Virus record (IMG/VR): IMGVR_UViG_2974749168_000001
Coordinates: 4,191-68,190 of that record
DNA length: 64,000 nt
Reading direction: 5' to 3' (one strand)
From: a virus
Taxonomy: Duplodnaviria > Caudoviricetes
Both the position numbers and the translations under genes were made by a program. Within the stretch, counting starts at the first letter, position 1; each line of letters starts with the position of its first letter. The notes below the pieces were generated by a model. That model had not been told where the DNA came from. It made no database searches and saw only the letters and a list, made by a program, of their open reading frames with translations. Positions 3,937 to 64,000 of this stretch are shown here, one piece after another.

Positions 3937-4374
3937 ATGCCCGACACAGCAGTTGAGCGCGTGCTCAGCATCAACGACTACCAGCAGGCGATCGACACGC
4001 TGGGGAAGGTCCGCGCGAAGGCGCTGGCCGGGAAGAAGTTGTCCCGTAAGGACCAGGCGATCCTGGTCTACGCCGCGGACTCGGTCGCCGCGCATCGCAG
4101 CGCGGACCTTCTCAGAGATGCCCTGCCTACTCCTCCCCTGTTCGCCCCGGCGCCAGGGCCGGGAGAGGAGAGGGTAGCGCTCGCAATCGCTCAGATCGAC
4201 CCGGAGCGAATGGCCGAGATCGACCTGGAAAGGCGGATCGAAGCCTTCCGGGGGATGCTCTACTCCGGTGAGCGAGCAGCGAGCAACGGGCTTCTGATCG
4301 GCGAGAAGGCGTATGCAGCATCGGTAAAGGCCGACTTCGAGCGCGTCTTCGCCCCGGAGCTCGGCGATGAGTGA
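3937..4374 (+). CDS. Hypothetical protein (145 aa)
   Basis: AAGGA RBS before the ATG at 3937. Confidence 0.7.
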   Translation: MPDTAVERVLSINDYQQAIDTLGKVRAKALAGKKLSRKDQAILVYAADSVAAHRSADLLRDALPTPPLFAPAPGPGEERVALAIAQIDPERMAEIDLERRIEAFRGMLYSGERAASNGLLIGEKAYAASVKADFERVFAPELGDE

Positions 4375-5197: not shown

Positions 5198-5919
5198 GCG
5201 ACATCGTATTACGGACGATGCGGGGGACCGGCGAGCCGCTGGAGAGCCCGATGATGAACGACATCGTCGAGGCCTGCCGAGCCCTGGACGTGCCGCACCG
5301 GCCGGTGCAGTACTGGGCCTCGATCGCTCCGGCCGGGGGCACGAAGATGTTCCACGAGAGCTATGCCGACGGTTGGCACCGAGGAGCTGTCGCTGACGCC
5401 GAGGGCCCCGCGTCGGTCTGGGTCGGCTACTCCCTCGGCGCGCTCATCGCCGGAGACCTTGCGGCAGCGGGGGAACTGGCCAACTGCATCCTGATGATCC
5501 TCATTTCGGATCCGCTCCGGCATGACCGCCAGATCGCTCCCGAGTGCCGGGTCCCGAGGGGGCTCTACGGGTGCGCGGGAAGCCGGTACATCCCCGACGC
5601 CAACTTCCCCGTCGTCTCGCTCTCGGTCCCGAACGACCCGATCTCGGCGCTGGAGCACTGGAACGGCTTCCGGCAGATCGCCTCGGTGATCACCGGCACC
5701 CCGCAACGCTGGGACGTCGGCAACGCCAACATCGGCGCGATCGTCGACGCGGCCCGTCGGTACCTCGGCACGCCGCCGAACCGTCTGTTGGGCACCCCGG
5801 CCAAACCCAGTCGGCACGTGGTCTACAACTCCGAGAAGATGCCGGGGCTCCCGGTGACCTACACCCAGTTCGCGGCGCGCGCTGCCGAACAGGCGATCGA
5901 GGACTATCGCGCGGTGTAG
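5194..5919 (+). CDS. Cutinase-like alpha/beta hydrolase, probable lysin B
   Basis: N-terminal RGTGE, nucleophile elbow GYSLG, NDPIS acid motif, C-terminal His (SRHVVY); size typical of actinophage LysB. Confidence 0.7.
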   Translation: MSDIVLRTMRGTGEPLESPMMNDIVEACRALDVPHRPVQYWASIAPAGGTKMFHESYADGWHRGAVADAEGPASVWVGYSLGALIAGDLAAAGELANCILMILISDPLRHDRQIAPECRVPRGLYGCAGSRYIPDANFPVVSLSVPNDPISALEHWNGFRQIASVITGTPQRWDVGNANIGAIVDAARRYLGTPPNRLLGTPAKPSRHVVYNSEKMPGLPVTYTQFAARAAEQAIEDYRAV

Positions 5920-5955
5920 TCTGGCCGTTGCGCCAGTGACGTGACGCCACAGAGG

Positions 5956-5990
5956 AACCCCGGTCGCTCCCATGAGAGGCCGGGGTTTCT
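5956..5990 (+). terminator. Stem-loop after lysin B (AACCCCGG...CCGGGGTT then TCT)
   Basis: Inverted repeat 5956-5963 / 5980-5987. Confidence 0.5.
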
Positions 5991-6015
5991 GCCTGTCCGG
6001 GGTACGATCCGGGGC

Positions 6016-6279
6016 ATGTCGTCTTCGTCGAGTCGCGCCAAGGGCAAGGCCTCCGACGGCGCACAACCGAAGGCCTACTGGCTCACCGGCGCTGGGGCAG
6101 CGAAGATCCGCTGGAACACCCCCGGGGACTTCACGCGCTGTGTCCGGCAGATCCGGAAGTACGCCGCGAAGGAGGGGTTCTCGGCTGAGGGGTACTGCTC
6201 CCGGCTGCACAAGGCGGCGACCGGGGTCTACCCGGGTGACAAACGCAACGTAGGCGGAAACGGCAGATCGAAGACGTGA
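6016..6279 (+). CDS. Conserved-looking small basic hypothetical protein; probable leaderless start
   Basis: -10-like TACGAT at 6003-6008, just upstream of the ATG; YW..GAGAAKIRWNTPGDFTRC pattern recalled from other actinophages. Confidence 0.7.
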   Translation: MSSSSSRAKGKASDGAQPKAYWLTGAGAAKIRWNTPGDFTRCVRQIRKYAAKEGFSAEGYCSRLHKAATGVYPGDKRNVGGNGRSKT

Positions 6280-35988: not shown

Positions 35989-36388
35989 CAACTTCTGGCT
36001 CACCCTTCTCGTCTTCATCCTGTTCGGGTCCCCCGCGCTGTTCTCCAAGACCGCGGCGAAGCTCCCGGGATTCCTTGGCGCGGCCGGTCGTTGGTGGCAG
36101 AACCGATCCGAGGCCAACTCCAACACCTCGCGCGTGGTCACCGCGGCGAACCTCGAACGGATCATCGACCAGCGGGTGTCGGAGAAGGTCGGCCATATCG
36201 AGCGCGAGGTCGTCGAGCTTCGCGAGGACATCGACGACTACTCGGAGTACCTGACCTACGACGCCGGGTGGCACCGGGAGACGAACATCTATGCCGCGCA
36301 AGCGGGCTTCGAGTTCCCGCCGCCGACACACCTGACGTTCACGCAATGGCAGGAGCGCAAGCGCACCCGGGCCACCTCGGCGGGCTAG
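35963..36388 (+). CDS. Lysis-cassette membrane protein (one TM plus coiled coil)
   Basis: FWLTLLVFILFG then a helical region; last gene before the strand switch. Confidence 0.75.
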   Translation: MEVPLPTTDNFWLTLLVFILFGSPALFSKTAAKLPGFLGAAGRWWQNRSEANSNTSRVVTAANLERIIDQRVSEKVGHIEREVVELREDIDDYSEYLTYDAGWHRETNIYAAQAGFEFPPPTHLTFTQWQERKRTRATSAG

Positions 36389-38934
36389 TCGACGGCCTTG
36401 CGCGACAGTCCCTTGAACACGTAGGCCGAGGTGACCTTCCCGTTCTTGCGCACGCTGGCAGATTTCGTCGTGAACCCGTTGTCGCGCATCCGAGCCATGA
36501 ACTCGCGCTTGTTCATCGGCTCCCGGATCTCTTCGCGCTTGGCCCACTGCCGGTACAGCTCGAACAGCGTGGTGGTGACGATCTTCCCGTCCTCGTCGGC
36601 GACGGTCATCTCCGACAGGAACGTCTGGAAGCTCGACGTCCCGGCGATGAACTTCTTCTGACGCTGGCGCACGAGCACCGGCATGTCGACGTCGAGACCT
36701 TCGGCGAGGTAGTCGATCAGGCCCTCGACGAGCCAGGCCAGCACGGCGCGCAACGCCTCGGGAGACGACTTGATCGGGTCGCTCTCGACCGCGCTCGGCG
36801 GGACCTGCCGGTCGAAGGGGAGCACGAGCAGACGACGCCAGAGTGCCGCGTCGCCGTCCTCAATCGTCGGCATCGAGTTGGTTGCGACGATCGGGGTGAA
36901 CATCGGGGTCTTCTGGACGATCGTGTTGCTGTAGAGAGCACGGGCCGACACCGAGTCGCCGCCGGTGAGCCGCTTGATGACGTCGGAGTGCAGCTTGTTG
37001 CGCTGGCCGACCTCCGAGGCGAACACGATCCGGCGGGGGAAGGCGTTGATCACCTCGGGCATCGGACCCGAGTCCCGCTTCTGGCGGAACAGGCCGTTGA
37101 GGTCGATCGAACCGGCGTAGTCGCCGAGACAGGCCTGCATCGCTTCGAGGATGGTCGTCTTGCCGGTCGAGGTGCCACCCTGGATGAAGATGATGCGGCG
37201 CTGCGGATTCCCTCCGAGGAAGGCGTAGCCGAACACCTTCCGGACGTACCGCTGGTACTCCGGGTCCGGCAGGAACGTGCTGAGGTAGCTCTCCCACTTC
37301 GGGTGGGTGAGACCGGGCTCGTAGGTGGTCGCGGTGTGCTGGAGGATCAGGTCTTCGGGCTTGCCCTTGCGGCACAGCGAGTCGTAGTCGGTGACCACAC
37401 CCTTCTTCGCCGCGACCTCGCGCAGATCCAGGACGCCGTTGCCGACACCCCAGGTCAGCGGATTCGTATCGAACTCGGCCGGGTCGATCGGGTTCTTCGA
37501 GAGCACGTGAGCCATCGACATCGAGTGCTCGATGATGGTCCGGTTGCCCGCCGTGACGGCGCGTTTGTCGAAGGCCTTCGCCGCCTTCAGGGTGTCGTCG
37601 GCTTCCGACATCCCCTGCTCCTCCTGGACCTCAGCCATGTTGTAGTGGCTCACCGCGGCAGCGCGGAGGGAGGCCTGCACCGACTGGGACCAGAGCAGGC
37701 CGTAGGTCTCGGCCTTGGTCAGCTTCACCAGCCGACCGATCTCCTCGTCCCACCAGGCCCAGTCGTCGGTGCCAGTCTTGATCGGCCGAACGACGTCGCC
37801 GAGCGCGTCGAGGAACATCTGCGCGCGGCCGGAGTCGCTGTCTTCGTACTCGCTGGCGTCGACGATCGTGTTGCGGCGCTCGATCATCCGCTTCAGCATC
37901 TTGTCGCGGAACGCCTCGATGTCGATGTCGCCGTCCCTGGCGGTGTACCCGCCGACGGTCGAGATCCGGATCAGATCGTCGGCGATGTCGGCGCGCAGCT
38001 TCGAGACCTCCCCGCACAGCGCGCGGCGCCACTCTCCCTTGGCCTGCAAAATGTCTCGGCGGGCCTCGCCACCGTCGGCCCCGCCGAGGGTCTCGGTCAG
38101 GAAGGCCTTACGGACGCGGCTGATCGCCAGCTTCAGTCCGTGGTGGCCCTCGGCCGCGAGCTGGACGACCTCGTGCAGTCGGCCGAGCATCATGTCGTGT
38201 GCGCCGGAGGACATCTCCTCGGCCAGCTTCTCCGGGTTGGTGGCCCGGTTCATGTGGCCGGACGGCTCCTCTTCGTAGCCGGGGATCTCGGTTTCGAGCC
38301 ACTGCACGGCTTCTTCGACGTCGTCGATCTCCTCGATCACGCGCGACTGGCCAGCTTCGCCCTTGCACAGGTGCTCGACCCACGGCTCCGGCAGCTCCGG
38401 CAAGTCGGTGACGTGCGGCGGGCCGTCCATCGGCTGCTCGTCGAGGTCGTACCAGCGGTAGACCCGGTCGTCGGTCTCCGACGGCCATGCGACGGCGTAG
38501 CGGTGGGTGCGCTGGATGACCTCGATGTCGGGGCCGGGCTTGCCCTTCCACTTCTGATCGGCAGGGACGAGGAAGAACCGGATACCCGACGGGTTGTCGG
38601 GGTCACGCGAGGTGGAGCGGTAGGTCATCGGCAGCGGTCCGAGCTCGTCGATCAGGTCGCGCAGAGTCTCGTAGCCGTGCTTGTCGTCGTACTCGTCGAC
38701 GTCGAGGCCGATGACCTCGACCTTGATCTCTCCCCCGAGGGTGAACCGCGGCATCCGCAGGCCCAGGTTGGACTCCGGGATCTCCTCGATCCAGTCGTTG
38801 ATCTGGTTCTCGTCGGGGTATGGCTTGTTCCCCGTGGTGTCGTCCGGCGGCGGGTACTTCATGCCCTCCGGCAGCGGAAGCGGGCTGTGCCAACCGGCGG
38901 CAAGGTAGGCGTCAGCGTGGTCACCGTAGATCAA
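36385..38934 (-). CDS. Primase-polymerase / D5-like SF3 helicase
   Basis: N-terminal Prim-Pol (IGLDVDEY, SGIRFF); C-terminal GGTSTGKTT, IVFASE, IKRLTGGD, RRLLVLPF. Confidence 0.92.
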   Translation of the reverse strand: MIYGDHADAYLAAGWHSPLPLPEGMKYPPPDDTTGNKPYPDENQINDWIEEIPESNLGLRMPRFTLGGEIKVEVIGLDVDEYDDKHGYETLRDLIDELGPLPMTYRSTSRDPDNPSGIRFFLVPADQKWKGKPGPDIEVIQRTHRYAVAWPSETDDRVYRWYDLDEQPMDGPPHVTDLPELPEPWVEHLCKGEAGQSRVIEEIDDVEEAVQWLETEIPGYEEEPSGHMNRATNPEKLAEEMSSGAHDMMLGRLHEVVQLAAEGHHGLKLAISRVRKAFLTETLGGADGGEARRDILQAKGEWRRALCGEVSKLRADIADDLIRISTVGGYTARDGDIDIEAFRDKMLKRMIERRNTIVDASEYEDSDSGRAQMFLDALGDVVRPIKTGTDDWAWWDEEIGRLVKLTKAETYGLLWSQSVQASLRAAAVSHYNMAEVQEEQGMSEADDTLKAAKAFDKRAVTAGNRTIIEHSMSMAHVLSKNPIDPAEFDTNPLTWGVGNGVLDLREVAAKKGVVTDYDSLCRKGKPEDLILQHTATTYEPGLTHPKWESYLSTFLPDPEYQRYVRKVFGYAFLGGNPQRRIIFIQGGTSTGKTTILEAMQACLGDYAGSIDLNGLFRQKRDSGPMPEVINAFPRRIVFASEVGQRNKLHSDVIKRLTGGDSVSARALYSNTIVQKTPMFTPIVATNSMPTIEDGDAALWRRLLVLPFDRQVPPSAVESDPIKSSPEALRAVLAWLVEGLIDYLAEGLDVDMPVLVRQRQKKFIAGTSSFQTFLSEMTVADEDGKIVTTTLFELYRQWAKREEIREPMNKREFMARMRDNGFTTKSASVRKNGKVTSAYVFKGLSRKAVD

Positions 38935-55304: not shown

Positions 55305-55345
55305 TCCTTAAATAATGTTGTTACTCAATAATATTCATTATTAAT
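55305..55345. promoter_or_regulatory. AT-rich divergent promoter block
   Basis: TTAAATAATGTTGTTACTCAATAATATTCATTATTAAT upstream of gene 55299. Confidence 0.6.
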
Positions 55346-55385
55346 CAGCGGATTTCTCGCGTACTCGCTGTACTCGGGTACCGGC

Positions 55386-55448
55386 GGGTCGGGGCGGGCT
55401 CGCGGGGCTCGGCCGCGGGGTCGGGTGCCACGGGGTCGGGTCGCGGGG
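55386..55448 (+). repeat. G-tract array (nine G3-G4 runs; CGGGGTCGGG repeated)
   Basis: Read directly. Confidence 0.7.
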
Positions 55449-55460
55449 TGGTCGCGCGCG

Positions 55461-55518
55461 TCGAACGTGCGTTCGACCGGGGTGGGTCGAACACTTGTTC
55501 GATCGAACCTCTGTTCGA
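55461..55518. promoter_or_regulatory. Three perfect LexA (SOS) boxes TCGAAC-N4-GTTCGA
   Basis: 55461-55476, 55487-55502, 55503-55518; match the actinobacterial LexA consensus. Confidence 0.75.
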
Positions 55519-55807
55519 TTGGGTCCCGATTCTGTCCGGCCGGTTGCCCGTTCGCGCTGTGCCGCGCGATCGCCGTATCGGGTCCCCGTTGGCGCGCTTA
55601 CCCTGGCGCCGTCGGTGCGCGTAGCTCTCGCGCTTCCCGTGTCCGCTGTGCTGTTTTCAATGGTCCCGCTGCGCCGTCCGGCGCGATACGACAACTGTAC
55701 CTGTTACCGGGCAACCGTCGCAACTCCCGGCCGTGTGGCCGTGTCGCGCTGCTCTCGTGTGCTGCTCATGAGACCACCGTACACACGTGCGCCGGTTGTC
55801 GCCAATC

Positions 55808-55837
55808 TTGCCAAGTACGGCCGTCGTCGCTTACTGT
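55808..55837 (+). promoter_or_regulatory. Promoter TTGCCA-N18-TACTGT upstream of the island
   Basis: Read directly; about 40 nt before the first island gene. Confidence 0.6.
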
Positions 55838-55878
55838 ATCCCCACCGGCCGCACACGGCGACCGGATGAGAGGACACT

Positions 55879-56682
55879 ATGACACTCACGCTCACCCCGC
55901 TCACCGGCGCCGACGCGCAGCGTTTCGACGGCGCGCAGTTCGACGACGCGACCGTCTACCGGATCGCCGATACCCGCGTGTCCGGTGTCGTCACCGCGCG
56001 CCGGGTCCTGTCGGGCAACGGTGCGCCGACCCACCGGGCGATTGACCCGACAACTGGCCGTGACGCCGATTCTGATACCCCGATCGCGCTCTATCCGTCG
56101 CTGTGGCTCACGTTCGGCGCGCAGGTGCGGGGGACCTATCTGAACACTCACGACACCGAAGAGATGTATCCCGAACCGTTCACCGTCAACGGCCGCGCGT
56201 ATCACCGGGTGACGGTGCGCGTCGACTTCCATCCGGTCGGTGTCGCCGGTCTCGACGTCAATTACACGTCACCCCAATCGGTCTCGCAATGGAACAGGTA
56301 CCCGGTCGAGACCGCGCGAGAGCGTGCCCGGGATCTCGCCGACGGCGTCGGGGGTGTCCTGTTTGTCGAGAGCGTGCCCGGGACCCACGGTGAGCGCTCG
56401 CACGGCGTCTACGTCGCCGACGTCTCGCAGTTCGACCGCGGCGAGATGACGCAGGCCGGTCGCCGCACGACCGAAAGGATCGCCGTCGAGATCTTGCGTG
56501 CGCAGATCGACACCGGTGTCGAGACCGATTGGCTCGACGACGTCGCCGCGCATGTCAATGCGCAGATCGCAGCGGCCGACGAGATCGCGCACCGATGGAA
56601 CGTCGAGAGCGCGAGGCTTCAGAACGTGCGCGTTGCTGCGCGCACCGAAGCGGTTTGCGGTCACGCCGTGGTGATCCGATGA
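55879..56682 (+). CDS. Island hypothetical protein (267 aa, no Lys)
   Basis: GAGAGGA RBS; long ORF; ATGA coupling to the next gene. Confidence 0.8.
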   Translation: MTLTLTPLTGADAQRFDGAQFDDATVYRIADTRVSGVVTARRVLSGNGAPTHRAIDPTTGRDADSDTPIALYPSLWLTFGAQVRGTYLNTHDTEEMYPEPFTVNGRAYHRVTVRVDFHPVGVAGLDVNYTSPQSVSQWNRYPVETARERARDLADGVGGVLFVESVPGTHGERSHGVYVADVSQFDRGEMTQAGRRTTERIAVEILRAQIDTGVETDWLDDVAAHVNAQIAAADEIAHRWNVESARLQNVRVAARTEAVCGHAVVIR

Positions 56683-57074
56683 CACTCACCCTCGACACGC
56701 GCGTCGCTACCGGCGCGCTCGCGATTGACGTTGAGAGCGTCGGCGAGACCGTCGCGACGCTCACCGCGGCCGGGTATGTCTGGCAAGTGATCGCCGACGC
56801 CGACGACACCGGCGCCGACCGGGTGCGCGTCGTGTGCCACGGTCGCCGGATCTCGCGACTGTTCGACCGGTGGCAGTACCCGCGGGCCGACGTGTGGTCG
56901 GCCGTCGCCGTCGCCGGTGTCCGCACGCTCACCGGCGCACAGCGGGTGACGCTCACCCTCGCCCCGGCCGGACCCGGCGCCGTATCGTTCCGCGGCCGAC
57001 GGCCGCTTCCCGACGCCGAACGTCACGCCGTCGAGAGCGCAGCGCGGCACTACGCCGTCACTGATCTCGACTAA
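56679..57074 (+). CDS. Island hypothetical protein (131 aa, no Lys)
   Basis: ATGA overlap; MTLTL N-terminus like its neighbours. Confidence 0.7.
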   Translation: MTLTLDTRVATGALAIDVESVGETVATLTAAGYVWQVIADADDTGADRVRVVCHGRRISRLFDRWQYPRADVWSAVAVAGVRTLTGAQRVTLTLAPAGPGAVSFRGRRPLPDAERHAVESAARHYAVTDLD

Positions 57075-57110
57075 CCGCTCACTCCCCTACTGACAGAACA
57101 GGATCGGACC

Positions 57111-57407
57111 ATGACTGTTACCCAACTCCCCAACGGCGCATACGCCGGGATCGACGACGACGACCGCGCGGCGCGGATCGCCTACCTCGGACGGCCGCGC
57201 CGACCGGGGGACCCCGGCGACCACTACCGGACACCCCGCGGATACGCGCGCTGCTACCGGTGCGAGAACAGCGCGACGACACACGTTCGGATGGCGATTA
57301 GCTCACTCACGCCGGTGTGTTTCCAACACCTGGACATGCTCGACGTCGAGCGGGACCCCTACGGGACCACGGTCGAGCGCGTACAACCGACCACCGAAAA
57401 CAACTGA
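57111..57407 (+). CDS. Island hypothetical protein (98 aa, CxxC...CxxH, no Lys)
   Basis: CAGGA RBS; CYRC...CFQH. Confidence 0.7.
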   Translation: MTVTQLPNGAYAGIDDDDRAARIAYLGRPRRPGDPGDHYRTPRGYARCYRCENSATTHVRMAISSLTPVCFQHLDMLDVERDPYGTTVERVQPTTENN

Positions 57408-57425
57408 GAGACAGGACACCCCACC

Positions 57426-58175
57426 ATGGACACGCGAATCATTGACCACGTCGACACGACCCGAATCGGGACTCAATCGGACGACGGCCTATTGCAGCTC
57501 ACTGACATCGGGTGCGACACCGACACCGACGACGCTGTGAGCGTCACCGTCCGGGAGCTGATTGGTCACAACGGATGGACATGTTCCCCGCGGTCGCTTG
57601 ACAAGCGTATGCGCCGCTTCGCTGCGCGCTGCTCGGGATACGGCGACCGTGCGCGGGTGAGCGTCGAGCGTCGGTGGATCGCTTACGGGTGCGACAACGT
57701 GACCTATTCGGTCCGTCCGGCCGACGGCCGACCGGGGGAGCGCTCCCGAGCGCGCCTCGACGGGATCTTTGCCGCCAACGGATGGCGCAGCGCGGCGAGC
57801 GATAAGTCGGGACACCCGGACGTGTACGTCCGGGACACGACACACGGGGGACCTCGGGCAATGGTCCAGGTGTATAGGGACCCGGCGCGGGGTCGAGTCA
57901 CCGGAGCGACGCTGTTCGACGACGACGGCCGCGCCTACCCGTTCCCATCACACGGGACGCTGCGCGCGGTGAGCGCGTACCTGCTCGGGTACCGGTGGAA
58001 GGTCACGACATACAACGGCGCCGTCCCGACGTTCGGCGTTCGCTACGGTCCCTCGGGGTCGATTGTGTTCCCGACCGAACCGGCCGCGCGCCGGTACTTC
58101 AAGCGCGTCAACCGTGAGCAGAGCGCAACGATCACCCGTGTCCCACCGGCCGACAAACCGGCCGGTACCCGGTAG
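57426..58175 (+). CDS. Island hypothetical protein (249 aa)
   Basis: CAGGA RBS. Confidence 0.75.
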   Translation: MDTRIIDHVDTTRIGTQSDDGLLQLTDIGCDTDTDDAVSVTVRELIGHNGWTCSPRSLDKRMRRFAARCSGYGDRARVSVERRWIAYGCDNVTYSVRPADGRPGERSRARLDGIFAANGWRSAASDKSGHPDVYVRDTTHGGPRAMVQVYRDPARGRVTGATLFDDDGRAYPFPSHGTLRAVSAYLLGYRWKVTTYNGAVPTFGVRYGPSGSIVFPTEPAARRYFKRVNREQSATITRVPPADKPAGTR

Positions 58176-58176
58176 T

Positions 58177-58205
58177 TTGCACGGTTGACGTTAAGCGCGT
58201 AACGT
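58177..58205 (+). promoter_or_regulatory. Promoter TTGCAC-N17-TAACGT with the operator variant TTGACGTTAA in the spacer
   Basis: Read directly. Confidence 0.68.
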
Positions 58206-58249
58206 ATCCCACATCGGGTCACCGGGACCCACTCACGAAAGGATCGACC

Positions 58250-58933
58250 ATGACACTCACACACGTTGTTACCGTCCGCGACACCGTCACGCTGCGCCGG
58301 GATCTCTCAGCTACCGGGTACGTCGGCGCAGTTCATCCCGACGGCGTCACCGTGCGGGTGTCCTGGGAAGGCGGGGCCGGTGTCTCGACCCTCGAAAACA
58401 TCGCCGATCTGTTCTATATCCTGCCTGCCGATCACGTCGGCGAGCGTCACACGGTTGATCTGCGGCCGGGTGTCCCGACGGTGTGCGGCGCCGGTGTGTT
58501 CACGTGGACAGACGAGTACGGCGACGAGTACGCGGGAAGCTGTACTCACCCCGCTGGGCATGACGGGGACTGTGCCGTGTCGATCGACGGCCTCGACGGC
58601 CTCGACGACGAGCGTTGCGTCGCGTGCGGTGAACCGGTCGACTACTGCCAGGGACACGGCGAGATCGGCGACCCGGTCGGCCGTGCGATCCTCGACGCAC
58701 ACGACGACGGCGACCACAACAATTGTCACCCGCTCGGGTGCGACGACGCTCCCCGGTCGTACTGGTACCGGTTCAACCGGCCGATGGAGCGGGAGCACTA
58801 CGTCGGCGATCTCGACGGTCTCGCGTATCACGTCGCGCGTCTACTCACCGTCCGGACCGTTCGCCTGCTCGACGACGGCCGCATGGTCGACGCCGGTTGC
58901 GGGATGACCGTCGGCGAGTATGGCGAACTGTAA
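58250..58933 (+). CDS. Island acidic Cys/His-rich protein (227 aa, no Lys)
   Basis: GAAAGGA RBS; several Cys/His clusters. Confidence 0.78.
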   Translation: MTLTHVVTVRDTVTLRRDLSATGYVGAVHPDGVTVRVSWEGGAGVSTLENIADLFYILPADHVGERHTVDLRPGVPTVCGAGVFTWTDEYGDEYAGSCTHPAGHDGDCAVSIDGLDGLDDERCVACGEPVDYCQGHGEIGDPVGRAILDAHDDGDHNNCHPLGCDDAPRSYWYRFNRPMEREHYVGDLDGLAYHVARLLTVRTVRLLDDGRMVDAGCGMTVGEYGEL

Positions 58934-58946
58934 CCCTCACTCATCC

Positions 58947-58975
58947 CGCGGCCGGGTCACCTCGACCCGGCCGCG
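58947..58975 (+). terminator. 12-bp perfect intergenic hairpin
   Basis: CGCGGCCGGGTC-ACCTC-GACCCGGCCGCG. Confidence 0.55.
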
Positions 58976-59000
58976 CCCTCACAGATAGGAAACGCTCATC

Positions 59001-59669
59001 ATGTCCGCAACGGGATACCTCGGCCGCAACGTGTACCGGTCGGCCGACGAGAACAAACAACCGACACCCGTCGAGCGGCTCACGGGGACCTCGACGACGT
59101 TCGGCCCTCGACCGCGCACGCTGCGCCGTAACGCCGACATCGGGCCCGCGATCGCCGACCGGATACCCGCCCTCGACGGCGGCGTGAGCGACGACGACGC
59201 GCGCGCAGCGGCCGCGTTTCGCACCCGCAACGGCGCCGTGTCGGCCGGATGGATCCCGTACGGCGAACTGTGCCGGTGGATCACGGGTCGATACGACGGC
59301 GCAGACAACGGGTGCGCGCTCCCCGCGGGGTGGCGCCGGGAGCTGTCCGAAGTCGCCTGCACACAATCGACGGCGTACGTGTACGTCGTATTCAGCTACG
59401 AAACGCCGATAGCGTGGCTGGACATGCGGGACGCGGCGCCGGTGCGCTCCCCGCTGCTCACGGTCCCCGATGTCCGCTATTCCCTCTCGACCGGCCGTCA
59501 CCAATCGGCGTGCCTCGGATACTTCCCGCGCAACGCCGACGGGACGCACGACTACTCGCGTGAGTACGTCCGCACCGGTGAGCGTGCGACGCTCCCCGAC
59601 GTCGACCCCGGGGAAGTCTCGCGTGGCCGCGGCCGGTCCCCGTTCGGACCTCGACGGGGAGGCTACTGA
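59001..59669 (+). CDS. Island hypothetical protein (222 aa)
   Basis: TAGGA RBS; YVVFSYETPIAW...YSLSTGRHQS pattern recalled from other actinophage proteins. Confidence 0.78.
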   Translation: MSATGYLGRNVYRSADENKQPTPVERLTGTSTTFGPRPRTLRRNADIGPAIADRIPALDGGVSDDDARAAAAFRTRNGAVSAGWIPYGELCRWITGRYDGADNGCALPAGWRRELSEVACTQSTAYVYVVFSYETPIAWLDMRDAAPVRSPLLTVPDVRYSLSTGRHQSACLGYFPRNADGTHDYSREYVRTGERATLPDVDPGEVSRGRGRSPFGPRRGGY

Positions 59670-59671
59670 AC

Positions 59672-59842
59672 ATGCGAGCGTCCGAACGTCGCGCGCTCCG
59701 CGCGATCACGGCCGACGCGCTGCGCGGGGTGGTCGCGATACCGGCCGACTCCCCTCACTACTGGCAAGCGCTCGACACCCTGCACACGGCCCGCGCACAC
59801 CGGCGCGCGCTGCTCACCCTCACAGATTGGCCCGAAAAATGA
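59672..59842 (+). CDS. Island small protein (56 aa; not in the ORF track)
   Basis: Hand translation MRASERRALRAITADALRGVVAIPADSPHYWQALDTLHTARAHRRALLTLTDWPEK; ATGA coupling to the next gene. Confidence 0.55.
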   Translation: MRASERRALRAITADALRGVVAIPADSPHYWQALDTLHTARAHRRALLTLTDWPEK

Positions 59843-60672
59843 CACACTCACCCGCTGCTAGCGACGTAATCGCAACGCGCACACTCGACCCCGTCGACGG
59901 TTTCACGCTCACCGCTTTCGAGGTCCCCGACACCGACTCGACACCGATCGGCCAATCGCTCGACGAGGGTGGCTGTTACACGGCCGACGACATCGAGGCA
60001 TGGCGCCGTGATGAGTGGCAGTACGTCGGTGTCGTCGTCGTCGCGTCGCGCGCCGGGGTGGATCTCGGGAGCGCGTCGATATGGGGAATGGACACCGGCG
60101 ACTATTGGGACGCGATCACTCGCGCCGACGGCCGGACACCCTACGGGGTGCTGGACAACGTCCCGAACAGCGTCACCACGGGACACCCTCGGGAGGATGG
60201 CGGGATCGACTACGTCACCCGGGATGACTTTGCCCACGGATACGGCGCAGACCTGATCTCTGAAGCGCTCACCGAAGCGCGCGCGACGGTCGCCGCGCTC
60301 ACGTCGCCGGACGTCGTAATCCCGGTGTGCGACGAGTGTGGGGAGCGCGCCGACGGCGTGAGCGACGCGCACGGCGTCGCCTGCTCACTGTTCACGGGCA
60401 ACGTCGCCGGGGACCCCTACGAGGTCCCGGCGCCGACGTTCTACCCGGGTGCGGGAGGCTGGCACACCGAACAGCGGGGGACATGCACGTATCACGTCGC
60501 GACCATCGCCGGGGGACATCGCGCGGCGTATGTGACGTTGAGCGATGCCAACGAGTACGTCGCCGGTCTCTACGACACAACGGACACCCCGCACGTGATC
60601 GGGACGTTCCCGACGCTGTTCGACGGGAAGCGCGCGGCCGACGCTGCTCGGGAGCGGGGGAGCGTCAAGTGA
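59839..60672 (+). CDS. Island acidic hypothetical protein (277 aa)
   Basis: AWRRDEWQYVGVVVVASRAGVDLGSASIWG pattern; CDEC motif. Confidence 0.78.
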   Translation: MTHSPAASDVIATRTLDPVDGFTLTAFEVPDTDSTPIGQSLDEGGCYTADDIEAWRRDEWQYVGVVVVASRAGVDLGSASIWGMDTGDYWDAITRADGRTPYGVLDNVPNSVTTGHPREDGGIDYVTRDDFAHGYGADLISEALTEARATVAALTSPDVVIPVCDECGERADGVSDAHGVACSLFTGNVAGDPYEVPAPTFYPGAGGWHTEQRGTCTYHVATIAGGHRAAYVTLSDANEYVAGLYDTTDTPHVIGTFPTLFDGKRAADAARERGSVK

Positions 60673-61352
60673 ACGTCACGACACCCGACGGCCGTGTGAT
60701 CGGCCGCGTGGATCTCACCCCGACCGACGTCGCAGCGCTCGCGCACGGTGTCGGCGCCGACGTCGAGCGACGCGCTCGCGCTCTCATCGGCGCGCAGCGC
60801 GCAGCGATCGCCACCGGGGGAGGCTGGACACCGGGACCGTCGACCGACGCGCGACCGTCGAGCGGGGAGCGTCCCCGTCGCCGTCGATGGTGGCCGTGGA
60901 TCGCCGGTGTGTTCGGCGCGCTCGCGCTGCTCGGGATGATCGCCGACACCGACGAGACACCCGCGGCCGACTCCCCGGCCGTCGAGGTCCCCGCAACCGT
61001 GGCACCGCAACCGGTCGACGCTGCGCGCGCGGTCCCGGCCGCGGACGGTTCGATCATGGTTGGGGCCGTCGTGGTCGACAACGTATTCGACGACCGCTCA
61101 CCGCTGCGCGACCGGTTTGCCGGTGTCGTGATCTCGCACGGCGCAACCGGGACCGTCGGCCGTGAGCTTGACGCGAACCTACGCGACGGGATCAAGTTCT
61201 GTCGGGATCTCGCGACCGGGCAACCGATCGCCACCCGACACGCGGCGATCGTCACCGGGACCGCCCCGGCGCGCGCCGGGTACGGGGACCTCGGGACCCA
61301 ACGTCGCGCGATCGTCACCGCTGCGCTCTCGACGCTGTGCCCTGCTCTGTAA
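60669..61352 (+). CDS. Island membrane-anchored protein with a DUF732-like C-terminal domain
   Basis: RRRRWWPWIAGVFGALALLGMIA TM; GIKFCRDLATG ... AALSTLCP cysteine pair. Confidence 0.65.
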   Translation: MNVTTPDGRVIGRVDLTPTDVAALAHGVGADVERRARALIGAQRAAIATGGGWTPGPSTDARPSSGERPRRRRWWPWIAGVFGALALLGMIADTDETPAADSPAVEVPATVAPQPVDAARAVPAADGSIMVGAVVVDNVFDDRSPLRDRFAGVVISHGATGTVGRELDANLRDGIKFCRDLATGQPIATRHAAIVTGTAPARAGYGDLGTQRRAIVTAALSTLCPAL

Positions 61353-61384
61353 CCCTCACTCACACAACAAGAATTGGAGCTGTC

Positions 61385-61915
61385 ATGCACTTCAAACCGG
61401 GTAACGCGCTCGCGCAAGTGAGCGACCGGCACTATCTCACGCTCGACGACGTCGTCGAGTACTCCCGGACCGACCGGTATCCGGCGCCGCGCAGCGCTAC
61501 CGGGTACGGCGAGAGCGCAACGGCGCACCGGTTGCGCTGCGCCGTCGGCGACGACGGCCGGATACTCACCCGGCGTGTGTACGTCCTGAACTATGGCAAC
61601 GGGGGAGGCACGCCGTACGTGTACGGCCGGGTGAGCGGGGAGCGCACACGGTTCTACCTCGACCCGTGGGTCGAGGACTACGTGCGTGCCATGGTCGCGC
61701 TCGACCGGAAAACGTCGGCCGTCGAGACGCTCGACGTCACCCGCGCAGCGACACAGGACCGATGGAACGATTACGGGTACGCCGACCGGGTGAGCGCGAC
61801 CGACGGTAGTCCTCGGGGACCGCTGCGCGTCTACCCGACGTCGAGACCAGACGACGTCGGCCGGTTAACCCGTGAGGGTCGTCTGTACTTCGCACGTCGG
61901 GACGCGCAGCGATGA
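61385..61915 (+). CDS. Island hypothetical protein (176 aa)
   Basis: GGAG RBS; SATGYG...RRVYVLNYGNGG..YV pattern. Confidence 0.75.
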   Translation: MHFKPGNALAQVSDRHYLTLDDVVEYSRTDRYPAPRSATGYGESATAHRLRCAVGDDGRILTRRVYVLNYGNGGGTPYVYGRVSGERTRFYLDPWVEDYVRAMVALDRKTSAVETLDVTRAATQDRWNDYGYADRVSATDGSPRGPLRVYPTSRPDDVGRLTREGRLYFARRDAQR

Positions 61916-62241
61916 GCGCGCGCGACGAGTGGCGACTGGGTGCGCCGGGAATGCTCACGTCCGGCGACGTGTGGTCACAGTCTCGACCGGCGACCGTCAA
62001 CGTTCTCATGTGGTCGGCCGACAACGCCGAGGGAAACAACGTTTACGCGCGACCGCGAGGACCGATCGCCGACGTGGTCCGGGATCTTGTCTGGCAGACA
62101 TGGCGAGAGCTGCGGCCGACGCTCGCGCAGCGCTACCCGGACGCGATTGTCACCGTGCGGCCGGACGACTGCTATCGCGGCCGGTGGCACTACACCGTGT
62201 GGTCTCACCCGTTAGTTGCGCCGGTTAGCGTCAACCCGTAA
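61912..62241 (+). CDS. Island hypothetical protein (109 aa, no Lys)
   Basis: ATGA coupling. Confidence 0.65.
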   Translation: MSARDEWRLGAPGMLTSGDVWSQSRPATVNVLMWSADNAEGNNVYARPRGPIADVVRDLVWQTWRELRPTLAQRYPDAIVTVRPDDCYRGRWHYTVWSHPLVAPVSVNP

Positions 62242-62288
62242 TGTCTGTCGTGTCGGCGAGAGACGCCGACGAGACGAGAGGACACCCC

Positions 62289-62624
62289 ATGGCACACAAC
62301 ACACTCACCGCGCAGATGTTTGACGCGCTCGCGTCGGTCGACATCGACGGCGTCGACATCTCTCAGGACCACGCCGGTCGGTGGCTCGACCTCGAATTGA
62401 CCACCGGGGAGGGCGGGGACCTGCTCATCGACCGTGATCGCCGGTACCCGGACGGTCTCGGGTGGCGGACACGGTGCGACCGTGTCGGGACCCGTCACCA
62501 CCGGACCATGGGGGACGTTGTCGACTACGTGACGTGGTGGGCCGACCGGTACGGCTACACGACACCGGACGTCGCGCCGGTGACGCTCACCCTGTTCGAC
62601 GGCGGCGCGTCGGTCGACGTATAG
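62289..62624 (+). CDS. Island hypothetical protein (111 aa, no Lys)
   Basis: GAGAGGACACCCC RBS. Confidence 0.7.
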   Translation: MAHNTLTAQMFDALASVDIDGVDISQDHAGRWLDLELTTGEGGDLLIDRDRRYPDGLGWRTRCDRVGTRHHRTMGDVVDYVTWWADRYGYTTPDVAPVTLTLFDGGASVDV

Positions 62625-62633
62625 CTCACCCCT

Positions 62634-62662
62634 CGGGACCCGGTCACTACGGCCGGGTCCCG
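62634..62662 (+). terminator. 10-bp intergenic hairpin followed by TTT
   Basis: CGGGACCCGG / CCGGGTCCCG. Confidence 0.55.
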
Positions 62663-62690
62663 TTTCATCTCTCACAGATTGGATCTCCCC

Positions 62691-62966
62691 ATGACAGACC
62701 ACCGGACACCCGGAATCATCACCAAAGTCGACCGACTCACCCGGGCAAACACACTCGCGCTCGAAACGGCCGTCACCCGCGGATACCTCGACGGCGACCG
62801 GGTCGACGTCGGTCGCACCGTCGCGACGTTTCGGGACGCGACTGCGGCCGACGCGCTCGCGTTGCTCGACGCTGCTCGGGAAGCGCTCGCACAGGATCAC
62901 GGGACCCGGGGACACCCCGTAGCGTCGCTACCGGCCGTGCGCCGTAAGTTGGTCGCGCTGCTGTAA
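62691..62966 (+). CDS. Island hypothetical protein (91 aa)
   Basis: Preceded by the CTCACAGATTGG motif. Confidence 0.7.
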   Translation: MTDHRTPGIITKVDRLTRANTLALETAVTRGYLDGDRVDVGRTVATFRDATAADALALLDAAREALAQDHGTRGHPVASLPAVRRKLVALL

Positions 62967-63010
62967 TTCCCGGCGCATCGGGTGAGTTGGTCCCCGACGT
63001 TGGATGACAC

Positions 63011-63048
63011 CCGACACCCCGTCACTCCCCATGGTGACGGGGTGTCGG
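63011..63048. terminator. 15-bp perfect hairpin closing the island
   Basis: CCGACACCCCGTCAC / GTGACGGGGTGTCGG. Confidence 0.65.
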
Positions 63049-63241
63049 CGTGTGTGCGCTGTGCGGGTGTCGTGTGTGCGGGTGGATCTCGGGGAGCGTC
63101 GTCGAGAGCGGGTGCGCTGCTCGGGAGCGTGAGAGCGTCGCTGTGCTCGACGCCGGGAAGGTGAGCGGGTGAGTGTGCGCTCATCGCTGCGCGGCCGTGT
63201 GTGGCGATCTCGGGACGTGTGCGGCCGTGTGTCGTCGAGCA

Positions 63242-63284
63242 GGGTAGGGGTGTCATGGGTAGGGGTGTCCTAGGTAGGGGTGTC
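63242..63284 (+). repeat. GGTAGGGGTGTC x3, 15-bp period
   Basis: 63243, 63258, 63273. Confidence 0.85.
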
Positions 63285-63309
63285 TGTGCGGCGCCGAATG
63301 ATGGGAGCA

Positions 63310-63600
63310 TTTCAAAAAACTTTACTGACTTGAATTATCTTTACTGACATGGATTATCTTTACTAACGTGCATATAGGCAGATACGAGGTAATTGTTTTC
63401 TAAGAATGAACAGGAATAAATAATTAATTATTTGTATTAGGCATTGTAATAGGCATAGGGGAGGGGTCCTATATAGGGGTATTTATGCACATTGAATAAT
63501 ACTTAGATGTTCTAATAATATTTCTAGAAATAATTCTGAGATATTTCTAGAATGAGTTGCACAATTGACGTCAATCGTTTAAACTAAGAATGTCAGCAAG
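63310..63600. other. AT-rich, origin-like region with three tandem 19-bp repeats and palindromes
   Basis: CTTTACTGACTTGAATTAT / CTTTACTGACATGGATTAT / CTTTACTAACGTGCAT at 63320, 63339, 63358; TATTTCTAGAAATA at 63519-63532. Confidence 0.55.
63557..63585 (+). promoter_or_regulatory. Promoter TTGCAC-N17-TAAACT with ATTGACGTCAAT in the spacer
   Basis: Read directly. Confidence 0.75.
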
Positions 63601-63883: not shown

Positions 63884-64000
63884 CTGCGCGCAGCGTGGCC
63901 CTGAGCTGCGCGTATGGTCCCTCGGGGACCCGGCGACCGCGCAGCGGGGGACGGGGGAGGGACCCCCTCCCCGGCCTGCGGCCAGGGGCCCGCCGCGTAC

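Follow-up and report, generated by a model that had tools for sequence, protein, structure and literature searches.

Lysine deserts have been described in proteins of Actinobacteria and of mycobacteriophages (Szulc et al. 2023, PMC10665810), and differences in codon usage between the early and late genes of phages have been reported (PMC5683454). In this study, we analyzed a window of 64,000 nucleotides from a phage of the class Caudoviricetes (IMG/VR record IMGVR_UViG_2974749168_000001, positions 4,191 to 68,190), in which the last rightward operon, hereafter the island, departs strongly from the remainder in the composition of both its DNA and its proteins. Further systems with which this island can be compared are horizontally transferred islands recognized by their Karlin signature, classical restriction-site avoidance, and the first-step-transfer DNA of phage T5 and the leading regions of plasmids, for which we know of no description of such a compositional domain. 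Depletion of the protospacer adjacent motifs (PAMs) of clustered regularly interspaced short palindromic repeats (CRISPR) systems in phages was reportedly noted by Kupczok and Bollback in 2014.

The island resembles the lysine deserts in that long lysine-free stretches occur in a phage of hosts with a Pup-proteasome. It differs from them in that one whole contiguous operon, and only that operon, is affected, and in the presence of Glu to Asp and Gln to His exchanges, a shift from NAG to NAA codons (N, any base), a strand-symmetric rule at codon junctions and a bias in non-coding DNA, none of which follows from lysine avoidance. Like horizontally transferred islands, it has sharp borders and a very different signature (delta* of 194), but a donor, mobility genes and patchiness are missing, and the same values are found in every member of the family examined. 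With restriction-site avoidance it shares the depletion of reverse-complement word pairs, and the same genome carries the classical form in eight absent hexamers; however, classical avoidance is word-specific, complete and genome-wide, whereas the island bias is diffuse, regional and expressed at the level of dinucleotides, with CG-rich palindromes enriched. The most depleted trinucleotide pairs of the island, AAG/CTT and AGG/CCT, recall PAM depletion, but the island words are not below dinucleotide expectation, are lost almost only in frame, and behave in the same way across host genera. As with early and late genes, a temporal or functional class has its own codon usage, but the effect in the island is far larger, strand-symmetric and context-dependent, alters amino acids and reaches non-coding DNA. 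The T5 first-step-transfer DNA and the plasmid leading regions are matched in that a terminal block, ~12% of the genome, carries small orphan genes near the physical end, but the promoter-proximal end of the island is the far end. The feature is new to the literature searched, in which mycobacteriophage lysine deserts are the nearest published idea.

We consider it an even chance (a probability of about 0.5) that the island is a conserved domain kept by selection acting mainly on the nucleic acid of one transcription unit, and neither an import nor a product of word avoidance. An original prediction, made from the letters of the window alone, had described the segment as avoiding AAG/CTT and CCAG/CTGG on both strands and GAGG on the + strand, and had offered three explanations, namely avoidance of sites read by host immunity, acquisition from a donor with another signature, and incompatibility with a base modification.

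Results

Borders and strength of the compositional domain

An unsupervised change-point method, based on the strand-symmetric dinucleotide log-likelihood ratio, placed the borders at 55357 and 63295, at the AT-rich stretches that bracket the operon and in near-exact agreement with the predicted bounds (55360-63300). The hand counts that had accompanied those bounds for 55861-62966 were reproduced exactly (AAG 25, CTT 16, CCAG 3 and CTGG 13), as were those for the capsid gene (CCAG 6, CTGG 9, AAG 15 and CTTC 11). Per kb, the island and the rest contained 3.5 and 12.4 AAG, 2.3 and 10.5 CTT, 0.42 and 6.2 CCAG, 1.8 and 7.8 CTGG, and 2.5 and 7.1 GAGG, respectively. Among double-strand trinucleotide pairs, AAG/CTT (0.26) and AGG/CCT (0.38) were the two most depleted. 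The enrichment of CpG and of purine-pyrimidine alternation, which the prediction had judged by eye, was also found on counting, with 173 CG per kb in the island against 132 in the rest and an alternation of 0.56-0.58 against about 0.49.

The Karlin delta* between island and rest was 194, whereas other 7.9-kb pieces averaged 40 and did not exceed 62. Relative abundances in the island and the rest, respectively, were 0.62 and 0.97 for AG/CT, 1.48 and 1.03 for AC/GT, 1.47 and 1.22 for CG, 0.78 and 0.39 for TA, 0.75 and 0.85 for CC/GG, and 0.73 and 0.88 for AA/TT. Purine or pyrimidine runs of at least 9 occurred 0.13 times per kb in the island and 1.75 times in the rest, while alternating runs of at least 9 occurred 4.3 and 0.94 times per kb. 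The non-coding flanks of the island showed the same alternation as its coding part (0.575 and 0.571). The signature was absent from the cos-proximal 705 bp and from other orphan-rich regions (left arm).

By megablast, the window was closest to Gordonia phages of the genus Foxborovirus (Zierdtviridae, Emilbogenvirinae). Its structural region was 99.4-99.6% identical to Foxboro, Tracker and NatB6, and the island was about 96% (95.7%) identical to that of the nearest relative, NatB6; in more distant relatives the alignment coverage of the right arm, the most mosaic part of the genome, went down to 20-60%. Rightward structural and lysis genes extend to ~35 kb and are followed by leftward replication genes at 36.4-55.3 kb and by a rightward block of small genes, an order that agrees with the family and in which the terminal block is the flagged island. 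The last ten bases of the window (63991-64000), CGCCGCGTAC, are identical to the 3' overhang that has been published for Wheezy, a close relative in cluster CR2 (PMC11751726). Position 64000 is accordingly the right cos end, and the window is the final 64 kb of a ~67-kb cos genome from a cluster CR2 Gordonia phage. The island, a right-arm operon of 13 orphan genes, stops 705 bp short of this end. No tRNA genes were found in the phage.

Amino acid and codon changes in the island

Lysine accounted for 0.62% of the residues encoded in the island and 4.24% of those in the rest (per-protein medians, 0.22% and 3.93%), and six of the 13 island proteins, of 267, 227, 131, 127, 109 and 98 amino acids (aa), contained none. 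By the definition of a lysine desert as a lysine-free stretch that spans 150 aa or more, or no less than half of the protein, lysine deserts are present among them. The charge totals remained steady, K+R being 11.2% in the island and 11.5% in the rest and D+E 13.1% and 13.6%. Cys, Tyr, Thr, Arg, Val, His and Asp were raised and Lys, Met, Gln, Glu, Ile, Phe and Asn were lowered, with a joint depletion of K, Q and E (island/rest 0.15, 0.53 and 0.56).

At the codon level, the NAG codons fell to 0.09 (Lys AAG), 0.36 (Gln CAG) and 0.48 (Glu GAG) of their rates elsewhere. The island/rest ratio of AAG was 0.08 in frame, where it is a Lys codon, but 0.70 and 0.95 out of frame, and the depletion of AG was strongest at codon positions 2-3, with a ratio of 0.32; the other two frames gave 0.88 and 0.86. 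AA was lost only in AAN codons and was up elsewhere, and AC, GT, CG and TA were up in all three codon frames. The Lys codons left in the island comprised 6 AAA and 8 AAG, compared with 6% and 94% elsewhere; likewise CAA rose to 39% from 9% and GAA to 28% from 16%. A-ending codons of Gly, Arg, Val and Pro did not rise, and Ala GCA did so only slightly (10% versus 7%). Because the shift to NAA came without a rise of the A-ending Gly, Arg, Val and Pro codons, the pressure points to NAG/AG as its target and not simply to the residue lysine.

Where the product of island gene 8 has R, R, R, V and A, its homologue in phage Achebe has five Lys, and several Asp of the island protein correspond to Glu in the homologue. 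The island genes are real genes under purifying selection, as substitutions at the three codon positions numbered 59/39/142 in comparison with NatB6 and 165/131/425 in comparison with GTE8.

Contributions of composition and codon context

Three nulls were applied to the 13 island genes. Null A kept the proteins and drew codons from rest-of-genome usage, null B kept the proteins and the island codon usage and permuted synonymous codons, and null C shuffled the codon order within each gene. The rough gene calls for the rest of the genome included ~7 probable shadow open reading frames (ORFs), and their removal from the frame, decomposition, symmetry and context tests left the picture unchanged.

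The words singled out by the original prediction were separated by the codon-preserving nulls. AAG, with 22 observed and 19.7-21 expected under nulls A and B, was accounted for by the composition of proteins and codons, and the same held for GAGG (17 observed, 19 expected under null B), whereas the depletion of CTT (16 observed, 34-38 expected), CCAG (3, 13-24) and CTGG (13, 37-47) survived. Still depleted as well were AGCC (0, 22), GGCT (11, 28-33), CCTT (0, 9-12), CCT (50, 93-110), GCCC (11, 50) and GGGC (13, 56). The z-scores of the composition-resistant depleted words ranged from -3.6 to -8, and CG was enriched under the nulls with a z-score of +14.

The context dependence of synonymous choice, also noted in the prediction, was real and strong, and the Leu and Gln codon ratios bear it out. 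CTC:CTG was 47:4 before G in the island and 282:147 elsewhere, but 10:33 and 148:211, respectively, before C or T, and CAA:CAG after C was 6:2 in the island and 16:224 elsewhere. In Ala codons of the island, GCC:GCG was 76:18 before G, whereas it was 15:106 when A, C or T followed. Writing a junction as the last base of one codon, a hyphen and the first base of the next, the rest of the genome showed a milder bias of the same general kind (C-G, G-A and T-C up; C-C and G-G down). Specific to the island were the avoidance of A-G (42 versus 76) and C-T (92 versus 137) and the preference for G-T and A-C. In a stepwise decomposition, amino acid composition alone gave a delta* of 155 out of 200, and the addition of island codon usage gave 160. 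The real codon context supplied the remainder: AG/CT fell from 0.71 to 0.60 and CC/GG from 0.84 to 0.73, while CG rose from 1.34 to 1.52 and alternation from 0.554 to 0.580. The signature is therefore about three-quarters amino acid composition and about one-quarter strand-symmetric codon-junction choice.

Strand symmetry and level of the signature

The island/rest log ratios of words and of their reverse complements were correlated with r = 0.88, 0.78 and 0.66 at k = 2, 3 and 4, and the symmetric component held 80-88% of the variance. Control random gene sets gave r = -0.12, 0.09 and 0.03 at the same word lengths, with a maximum of 0.30 at k = 4, so that the depletion is not confined to a single strand. 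Sequences that kept only the amino acids of the island had r = 0.72, 0.61 and 0.34. The context bias specific to the island stayed symmetric (r = 0.54-0.66) when protein and codon usage were kept constant, in line with the earlier suggestion that the bias concerns double-stranded DNA and not protein alone. The top symmetric pairs were AGCC/GGCT, CCAG/CTGG, GCCA/TGGC, GCCC/GGGC, TCAG/CTGA and CAGG/CCTG. Since the bias is strand-symmetric and is kept at synonymous junctions, protein composition alone does not account for it.

A maximal-order Markov model of the island itself was used to compare words with their sub-words. Observed and expected counts were 27 and 25 for AAG, 3 and 6 for CCAG, 14 and 23 for CTGG, 18 and 22 for GAGG, and 5 and 5 for AAGG. 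AGCC/GGCT and GCCC/GGGC were the only consistent outliers, IDyn and Buggaboo included, and they were somewhat low in the rest too. As the flagged words lie near their sub-word expectation, the primary level of the signature is the dinucleotide step and not specific words.

Eight hexamer palindromes, matching sites of the NaeI, XhoI, ClaI, PvuII, MluI, ApaLI, PstI and SphI types, had a count of 0 across the 64 kb: GCCGGC (expected 63 in the rest and 11 in the island, ~74), CTCGAG (54 and 8, ~62), ATCGAT (~24), CAGCTG (~21), ACGCGT (~14), GTGCAC (~10), CTGCAG (~9) and GCATGC (~8). Their absence is classical genome-wide restriction-site avoidance, unlike the signature of the island. For hexamer palindromes, the mean z was -1.92 in the rest (p = 3e-6) and -0.75 in the island, where avoidance was thus weaker and where 4-mer palindromes and CG-rich palindromes were enriched.

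Some individual words were strongly asymmetric. When the islands of the window, Buggaboo, NosilaM, GTE8 and IDyn were pooled, CCGAG occurred 8 times, with ~148 expected from its sense-strand rate elsewhere, and its complement CTCGG 45 times, which places it among the most asymmetric depletions. On the + strand of 55357-63295, CCAGC, CAGCC and AGCCC were absent and GCCAG was found once, with ~57 expected in all, while the complements GCTGG, GGCTG, GGGCT and CTGGC were only ~3-fold depleted in the island.

Conservation among related phages

The signature was present in the right arm of all nine relatives, namely NatB6, Buggaboo, NosilaM, GTE8, IDyn (genus Sukkupivirus), two IMG/VR contigs, the Rhodococcus phage Apiary and the Nocardia phage NC1, and its onset was sharp at the divergent switch in each of them. 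In GTE8, whose record runs across cos, the left arm begins with an HNH endonuclease gene, and the signature ends ~200 bp upstream of it. Values for four islands were 0.60-0.62 for AG/CT, 1.39-1.52 for AC/GT and 1.47-1.61 for CG; delta* was 47-97 from island to island and 192-260 from island to rest, and the trinucleotide log-ratio vectors of different phages were correlated at 0.89-0.93. Lysine amounted to 0.6-0.9% in the four family islands and to 4.5-5.4% elsewhere. Homologous and non-homologous right-arm genes of the relatives carried the signature alike. The Tsukamurella phage TPA2, which is unrelated but has the same architecture, had no such domain, and its right-arm lysine content was normal (2.5%). 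A 50-kb sample of Rhodococcus plasmid DNA was intermediate in AG/CT (0.76), with a delta* of 164-227 to the island.

Except for one domain in Achebe, no homologues of island proteins outside the family were found among 5.8 billion proteins and phage records, and a search of IMG/VR gave only copies of known relatives. With the signature in all nine relatives, homologues limited to the family apart from the Achebe domain, and no donor, the recent transfer considered in the original prediction is refuted. Of the features by which horizontal islands are known, atypical composition was found, and a patchy distribution, a donor and mobility signatures were not. The unpolarised synonymous substitution spectrum against GTE8 was alike in the island and the rest (transitions 0.45 and 0.475; C<>G 0.33 and 0.37, respectively).

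Elsewhere in the genomes of the family, Apiary gp75 (36239-37450) encodes an RtcB-like RNA ligase and NatB6 gp9 (5790-6035) a HicA-like RNase toxin. The similarity of these two products to known proteins hints that cleavage and repair of RNA or tRNA may matter in infections by this family.

Genes and other features of the right arm

The features of the island and its surroundings are listed in Table 1. Pfam gave no hit above threshold, PADLOC no hit, and PHROG only families of unknown function for the ten island proteins searched. The same ten proteins had no mobility hits in Pfam or PHROG, and the borders consist of AT-rich promoter-like DNA. No significant matches indicating paralogy were obtained among the island genes. 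A structure model of island gene 1, built on a 5-sequence alignment, had a mean predicted local distance difference test score (pLDDT) of 46.9. Among public sequencing runs, no RNA run was listed as containing the island sequence.

Table 1. Features of the island and its surroundings in the window (strand: dot, none assigned)
Feature	Position	Strand	Remarks
AT-rich left boundary	55305..55345	.	Separates the leftward replication operon from the island; change-point 55357 just after
Compositional island: right-arm transcription unit with non-coding leader and trailer	55357..63295	+	Change-point, delta* 194, alternation of flanks
Three perfect TCGAAC-N4-GTTCGA boxes	55461..55518	.	Actinobacterial LexA consensus; in the island leader between the divergent operons
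Small ORF	55660..55869	+	Putative coding; gp78 in the NatB6 annotation; 69 aa, 1 Lys, 13 Arg
Island gene 1	55879..56682	+	267 aa, 0 Lys, 26 Arg; orphan (phrog_26936)
Island gene 2	56679..57074	+	131 aa, 0 Lys
Island gene 3	57111..57407	+	98 aa, 0 Lys
Island gene 4	57426..58175	+	249 aa, 5 Lys, 33 Arg
Island gene 5	58250..58933	+	227 aa, 0 Lys, 9 Cys
Island gene 6	59001..59669	+	222 aa, 1 Lys
Island gene 7	59672..59842	+	56 aa
Island gene 8	59839..60672	+	277 aa, 2 Lys; N-terminal domain distantly homologous to Mycobacterium phage Achebe
Island gene 9	60669..61352	+	227 aa membrane protein, 1 Lys, 23 Arg; weak DUF732-like C-terminus
Island gene 10	61385..61915	+	176 aa, 2 Lys
Island gene 11	61912..62241	+	109 aa, 0 Lys
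Island gene 12	62241..62624	+	127 aa, 0 Lys
Island gene 13	62679..62966	+	95 aa, 2 Lys
GT-rich non-coding trailer	62967..63295	+	Alternation at island level
AT-rich right boundary	63300..63600	.	Promoter-like sites; putative origin
Right physical genome end	63991..64000	+	Final ten bases equal the Wheezy 3' overhang CGCCGCGTAC

All Gordonia members examined had a cluster of three to four LexA-type boxes at this site, whereas the Rhodococcus phage Apiary and the Nocardia phage NC1 had none. The trailer includes a perfect hairpin with a 13-bp stem at ~63013-63053 and, directly before the AT-rich region, three tandem units of the GGTAGGGGTGTC type at ~63243-63290. The sequence AATAATATT is common to both AT-rich flanks (55305-55345 and 63480-63560), which may carry the same kind of promoter or binding site. 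Pyrimidine-rich modules of the type TAAC-C(C/G)CTCACTC follow stop codons at 57072-57110, 58931-59000, 61350-61384 and 62622-62678, often with a GC-rich hairpin next and then a weak AGGA-type ribosome-binding site, and their pyrimidine-rich words resemble the 3' end of 16S rRNA (anti-Shine-Dalgarno-like).

Discussion

Selection on the nucleic acid of one transcription unit, which we regard as about as probable as all else, is the reading that we infer; the compositional rule itself, its borders, strand symmetry and conservation, and the reality of the genes have been shown above. The rule has two layers. In the first layer, NAG codons are purged, the few left shift to NAA, and residues are exchanged for chemically similar ones with AC, GT, CG or TA codons (Lys to Arg, Glu to Asp, Gln to His, and further Phe to Tyr, Ser to Thr and Ile/Leu/Met to Val). 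In the second layer, the synonymous third base is set for the junctions C-G, G-T, A-C, G-A and T-C and against A-G, C-T, C-C and G-G. Together, the two layers strip purine and pyrimidine runs and lift alternation from 0.49 to 0.58 in coding and non-coding DNA. Our leading guess for the agent is an intolerance of purine/pyrimidine runs in a head-on operon, where such runs may act as DNA prone to R-loops or triplexes or as Shine-Dalgarno-like and anti-Shine-Dalgarno-like words; the operon would be the sole one transcribed head-on to an AT-rich putative origin at 63.3-63.6 kb. As near-equal values were found in phages of Gordonia, Rhodococcus and Nocardia, we infer that the agent belongs to the biology of the phage family or is a trait shared by all Mycobacteriales, and is probably not a host-specific immune system. 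That the borders are those of the transcription unit, AT-rich on either side, speaks for this reading, and replacements in the same direction together with an unchanged coarse mutation spectrum favour selection on the nucleic acid, to which the proteins would accommodate conservatively. The scarcity of lysine would then largely follow from the avoidance of NAG/AG.

Several observations weigh against this reading. Over the 1.1 kb of the island that is non-coding, the + strand is poor in AG, AA and GA but not in CT, TT and TC, and this asymmetry fits a cause at the RNA level better than one at the level of the duplex; a sense-strand component is present beside the symmetric one. In-frame codons and their reverse-complement codons are weakly correlated (r = 0.23). 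AGC and GGG codons are not avoided, so that the rule is not simply one of no purine runs, and the R-loop guess is weakened accordingly. The share of protein composition, three-quarters of the signature, leaves room for a cause at the protein level. Literature searches gave no precedent for such a domain.

Mycobacteriales hosts have a Pup-proteasome. Avoidance of lysine at the protein level, by which lysine-desert products would escape the Pup-proteasome or ubiquitin-like antiphage tagging and the DNA signature would be a by-product combined with codon-pair bias, is unlikely but live. It agrees with the constant K+R at six lysine-free proteins out of 13, with the low lysine content of all family islands, with the loss of AAG only in frame, and with the fact that amino acid composition fully covers AAG and gives most of delta*; lysine deserts in mycobacteriophages have been proposed to be a form of pupylation avoidance (PMC10665810). 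However, it leaves the replacement of Glu by Asp, Gln by His, Phe by Tyr and Ile/Leu by Val unaccounted for, as well as the shift from NAG to NAA (6 AAA to 8 AAG, where about 1 to 13 would be expected), and the right arm of TPA2, which also has a Mycobacteriales host, contains lysine at a normal level. Evasion of immunity at the level of translation, in which NAG codons (Lys, Gln and Glu) would be avoided against anticodon nucleases or A-site toxins of the RelE, HigB and YafQ type, appears rather unlikely, though it too is live. The focus of AG loss on codon positions 2-3, the joint decrease of K, Q and E with their move to NAA and the lack of tRNA genes in the phage would be expected from it, and the RtcB-like ligase of Apiary, of a type that repairs cleaved tRNA, and the HicA-like toxin of NatB6 would suit it. 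Antiphage defences that target tRNA have been documented (PMC10264068 and PMC11555353). On the other hand, such evasion predicts an effect on the sense strand and in frame only, so that the avoidance of A-G and C-T junctions and the symmetry at k = 4 are unexpected; the stop codon TAG is still used twice, alternation extends into the non-coding flanks, and lysine-rich late genes would still block the phage unless an island product disarms the defence. These two explanations stay live because most of the signal sits in NAG codons and protein composition, but the non-coding flanks and the strand-symmetric rule at the junctions are left unexplained by both. A wider formulation, put forward tentatively as a possibility, is that the operon has been rewritten in a restricted code with hardly any NAG or lysine and no purine or pyrimidine runs, so that its DNA, transcripts and products would withstand defences directed at lysine, at tRNA-Lys/Gln/Glu or at the A site, or stalling at R-loops or non-B DNA, with the same equilibrium held in phages of three host genera.

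The explanations at the DNA level fare less well. Evasion of host DNA-targeting immunity (the type I-E PAM AAG/AGG, or motifs of type I, type III and bacteriophage exclusion (BREX) systems) in DNA supposed to enter first, as put forward in the original prediction, would suit an island 705 bp from the right cos end, the identity of the two most depleted trinucleotide pairs, the strand symmetry and orphan genes that could be early anti-defence genes. We regard it as improbable, because AAG, CCAG and CTGG match their sub-word expectation, AAG is hardly depleted out of frame, ~41 AAG/CTT are left, and the signature is steady across three host genera; moreover, the borders track the operon and not the distance from the end, the terminal 705 bp being undepleted, and word-specific restriction avoidance in this genome is genome-wide, with no special palindrome depletion in the island. 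A mutation bias specific to the region, caused by a head-on conflict of replication and transcription by the putative origin or by a different polymerase in synthesis or repair, has a similarly small likelihood. Attractor-like values that are nearly identical in diverged phages, the faster divergence of the island compared with the structural genes, and its place as the only large head-on unit if the origin lies at 63.3-63.6 kb are in its favour, whereas the coarse synonymous-site spectrum is the same inside and outside, mutagenesis linked to conflict or transcription is asymmetric while the signature is mostly strand-symmetric, and the conservative replacements at constant K+R and D+E look like selection around a constraint. 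The signature thus appears to be maintained by selection rather than by mutation bias. An ancient form of the import hypothesis, in which the module was gained long ago from a gene pool of another signature or is still exchanged with it, is very unlikely. A delta* of 194 has the size of the distance between distant taxa and the right arm is mosaic, both of which are in its favour, but every member examined has the signature, non-homologous right-arm genes included, and no homologues are known beyond the family except one distant Achebe domain; synonymous sites are saturated between genera, so that a signature that was not maintained should be gone, and the sample of Rhodococcus DNA is not island-like. 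Least credible is incompatibility with a base modification, which was likewise among the earlier suggestions. A bias at the DNA level and on both strands is its sole support; the effect is at the level of dinucleotides and not of motifs, and the annotations of NatB6, GTE8, IDyn, Apiary and NC1 contain no genes of the modification, methylase or deazaguanine kind.

A number of other candidates were tried and rejected. Avoidance of ultraviolet lesions in the template strand was dismissed since the change from NAG to NAA adds TT to the template and GA/TC is hardly lowered, and a stronger purine-any base-pyrimidine (RNY) periodicity was dismissed as the source of symmetry since RNY codons were 0.370 versus 0.365. 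Selection on RNA folding was not supported by the GC-adjusted minimum free energy, which differs by ~1.2 kcal/mol per 150 nt with similar shuffle z-scores, nor was extra duplex stability by the GC-adjusted nearest-neighbour energy, which lies just 1.6 sd from the rest. Long Z-DNA tracts were not in excess (tracts of at least 9, 4.3 per kb versus 5.4 expected under a geometric model with p = 0.58). The over-represented words GACACC and CTCACC and their complements, which might have pointed to hidden binding-site repeats, were mostly in frame 0 (Asp-Thr, Leu-Thr and Gly-Val pairs) and extended to no longer consensus. Relaxed constraint as the whole cause was rejected on the orphan-rich left arm, which has no signature, and on the purifying selection of the island genes; a host-like composition, on the Rhodococcus plasmid sample, which is intermediate for AG/CT and far from the island overall; and LexA boxes, on their absence from Apiary and NC1, both of which have the signature.

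Conclusions

Atypical composition is usually read as recent transfer, whereas the island is a bounded domain conserved across a family with hosts in three genera. It is as far from its own genome as unrelated taxa are from each other, and it reshapes 13-17 proteins, taking lysine from 4-5% to 0.6-0.9%. A domain that is conserved, bounded and extreme therefore speaks for a strong local selective force on one operon. The signature calls for caution in k-mer-based island detection and host prediction. The agent, with lysine- or tRNA-directed immunity, replication-transcription conflict and DNA structure as candidates, would, once found, show what the large right arms of actinophages, function-less as they are, have to contend with inside the cell, and would also supply a marker by which such operons could be recognized from composition alone.

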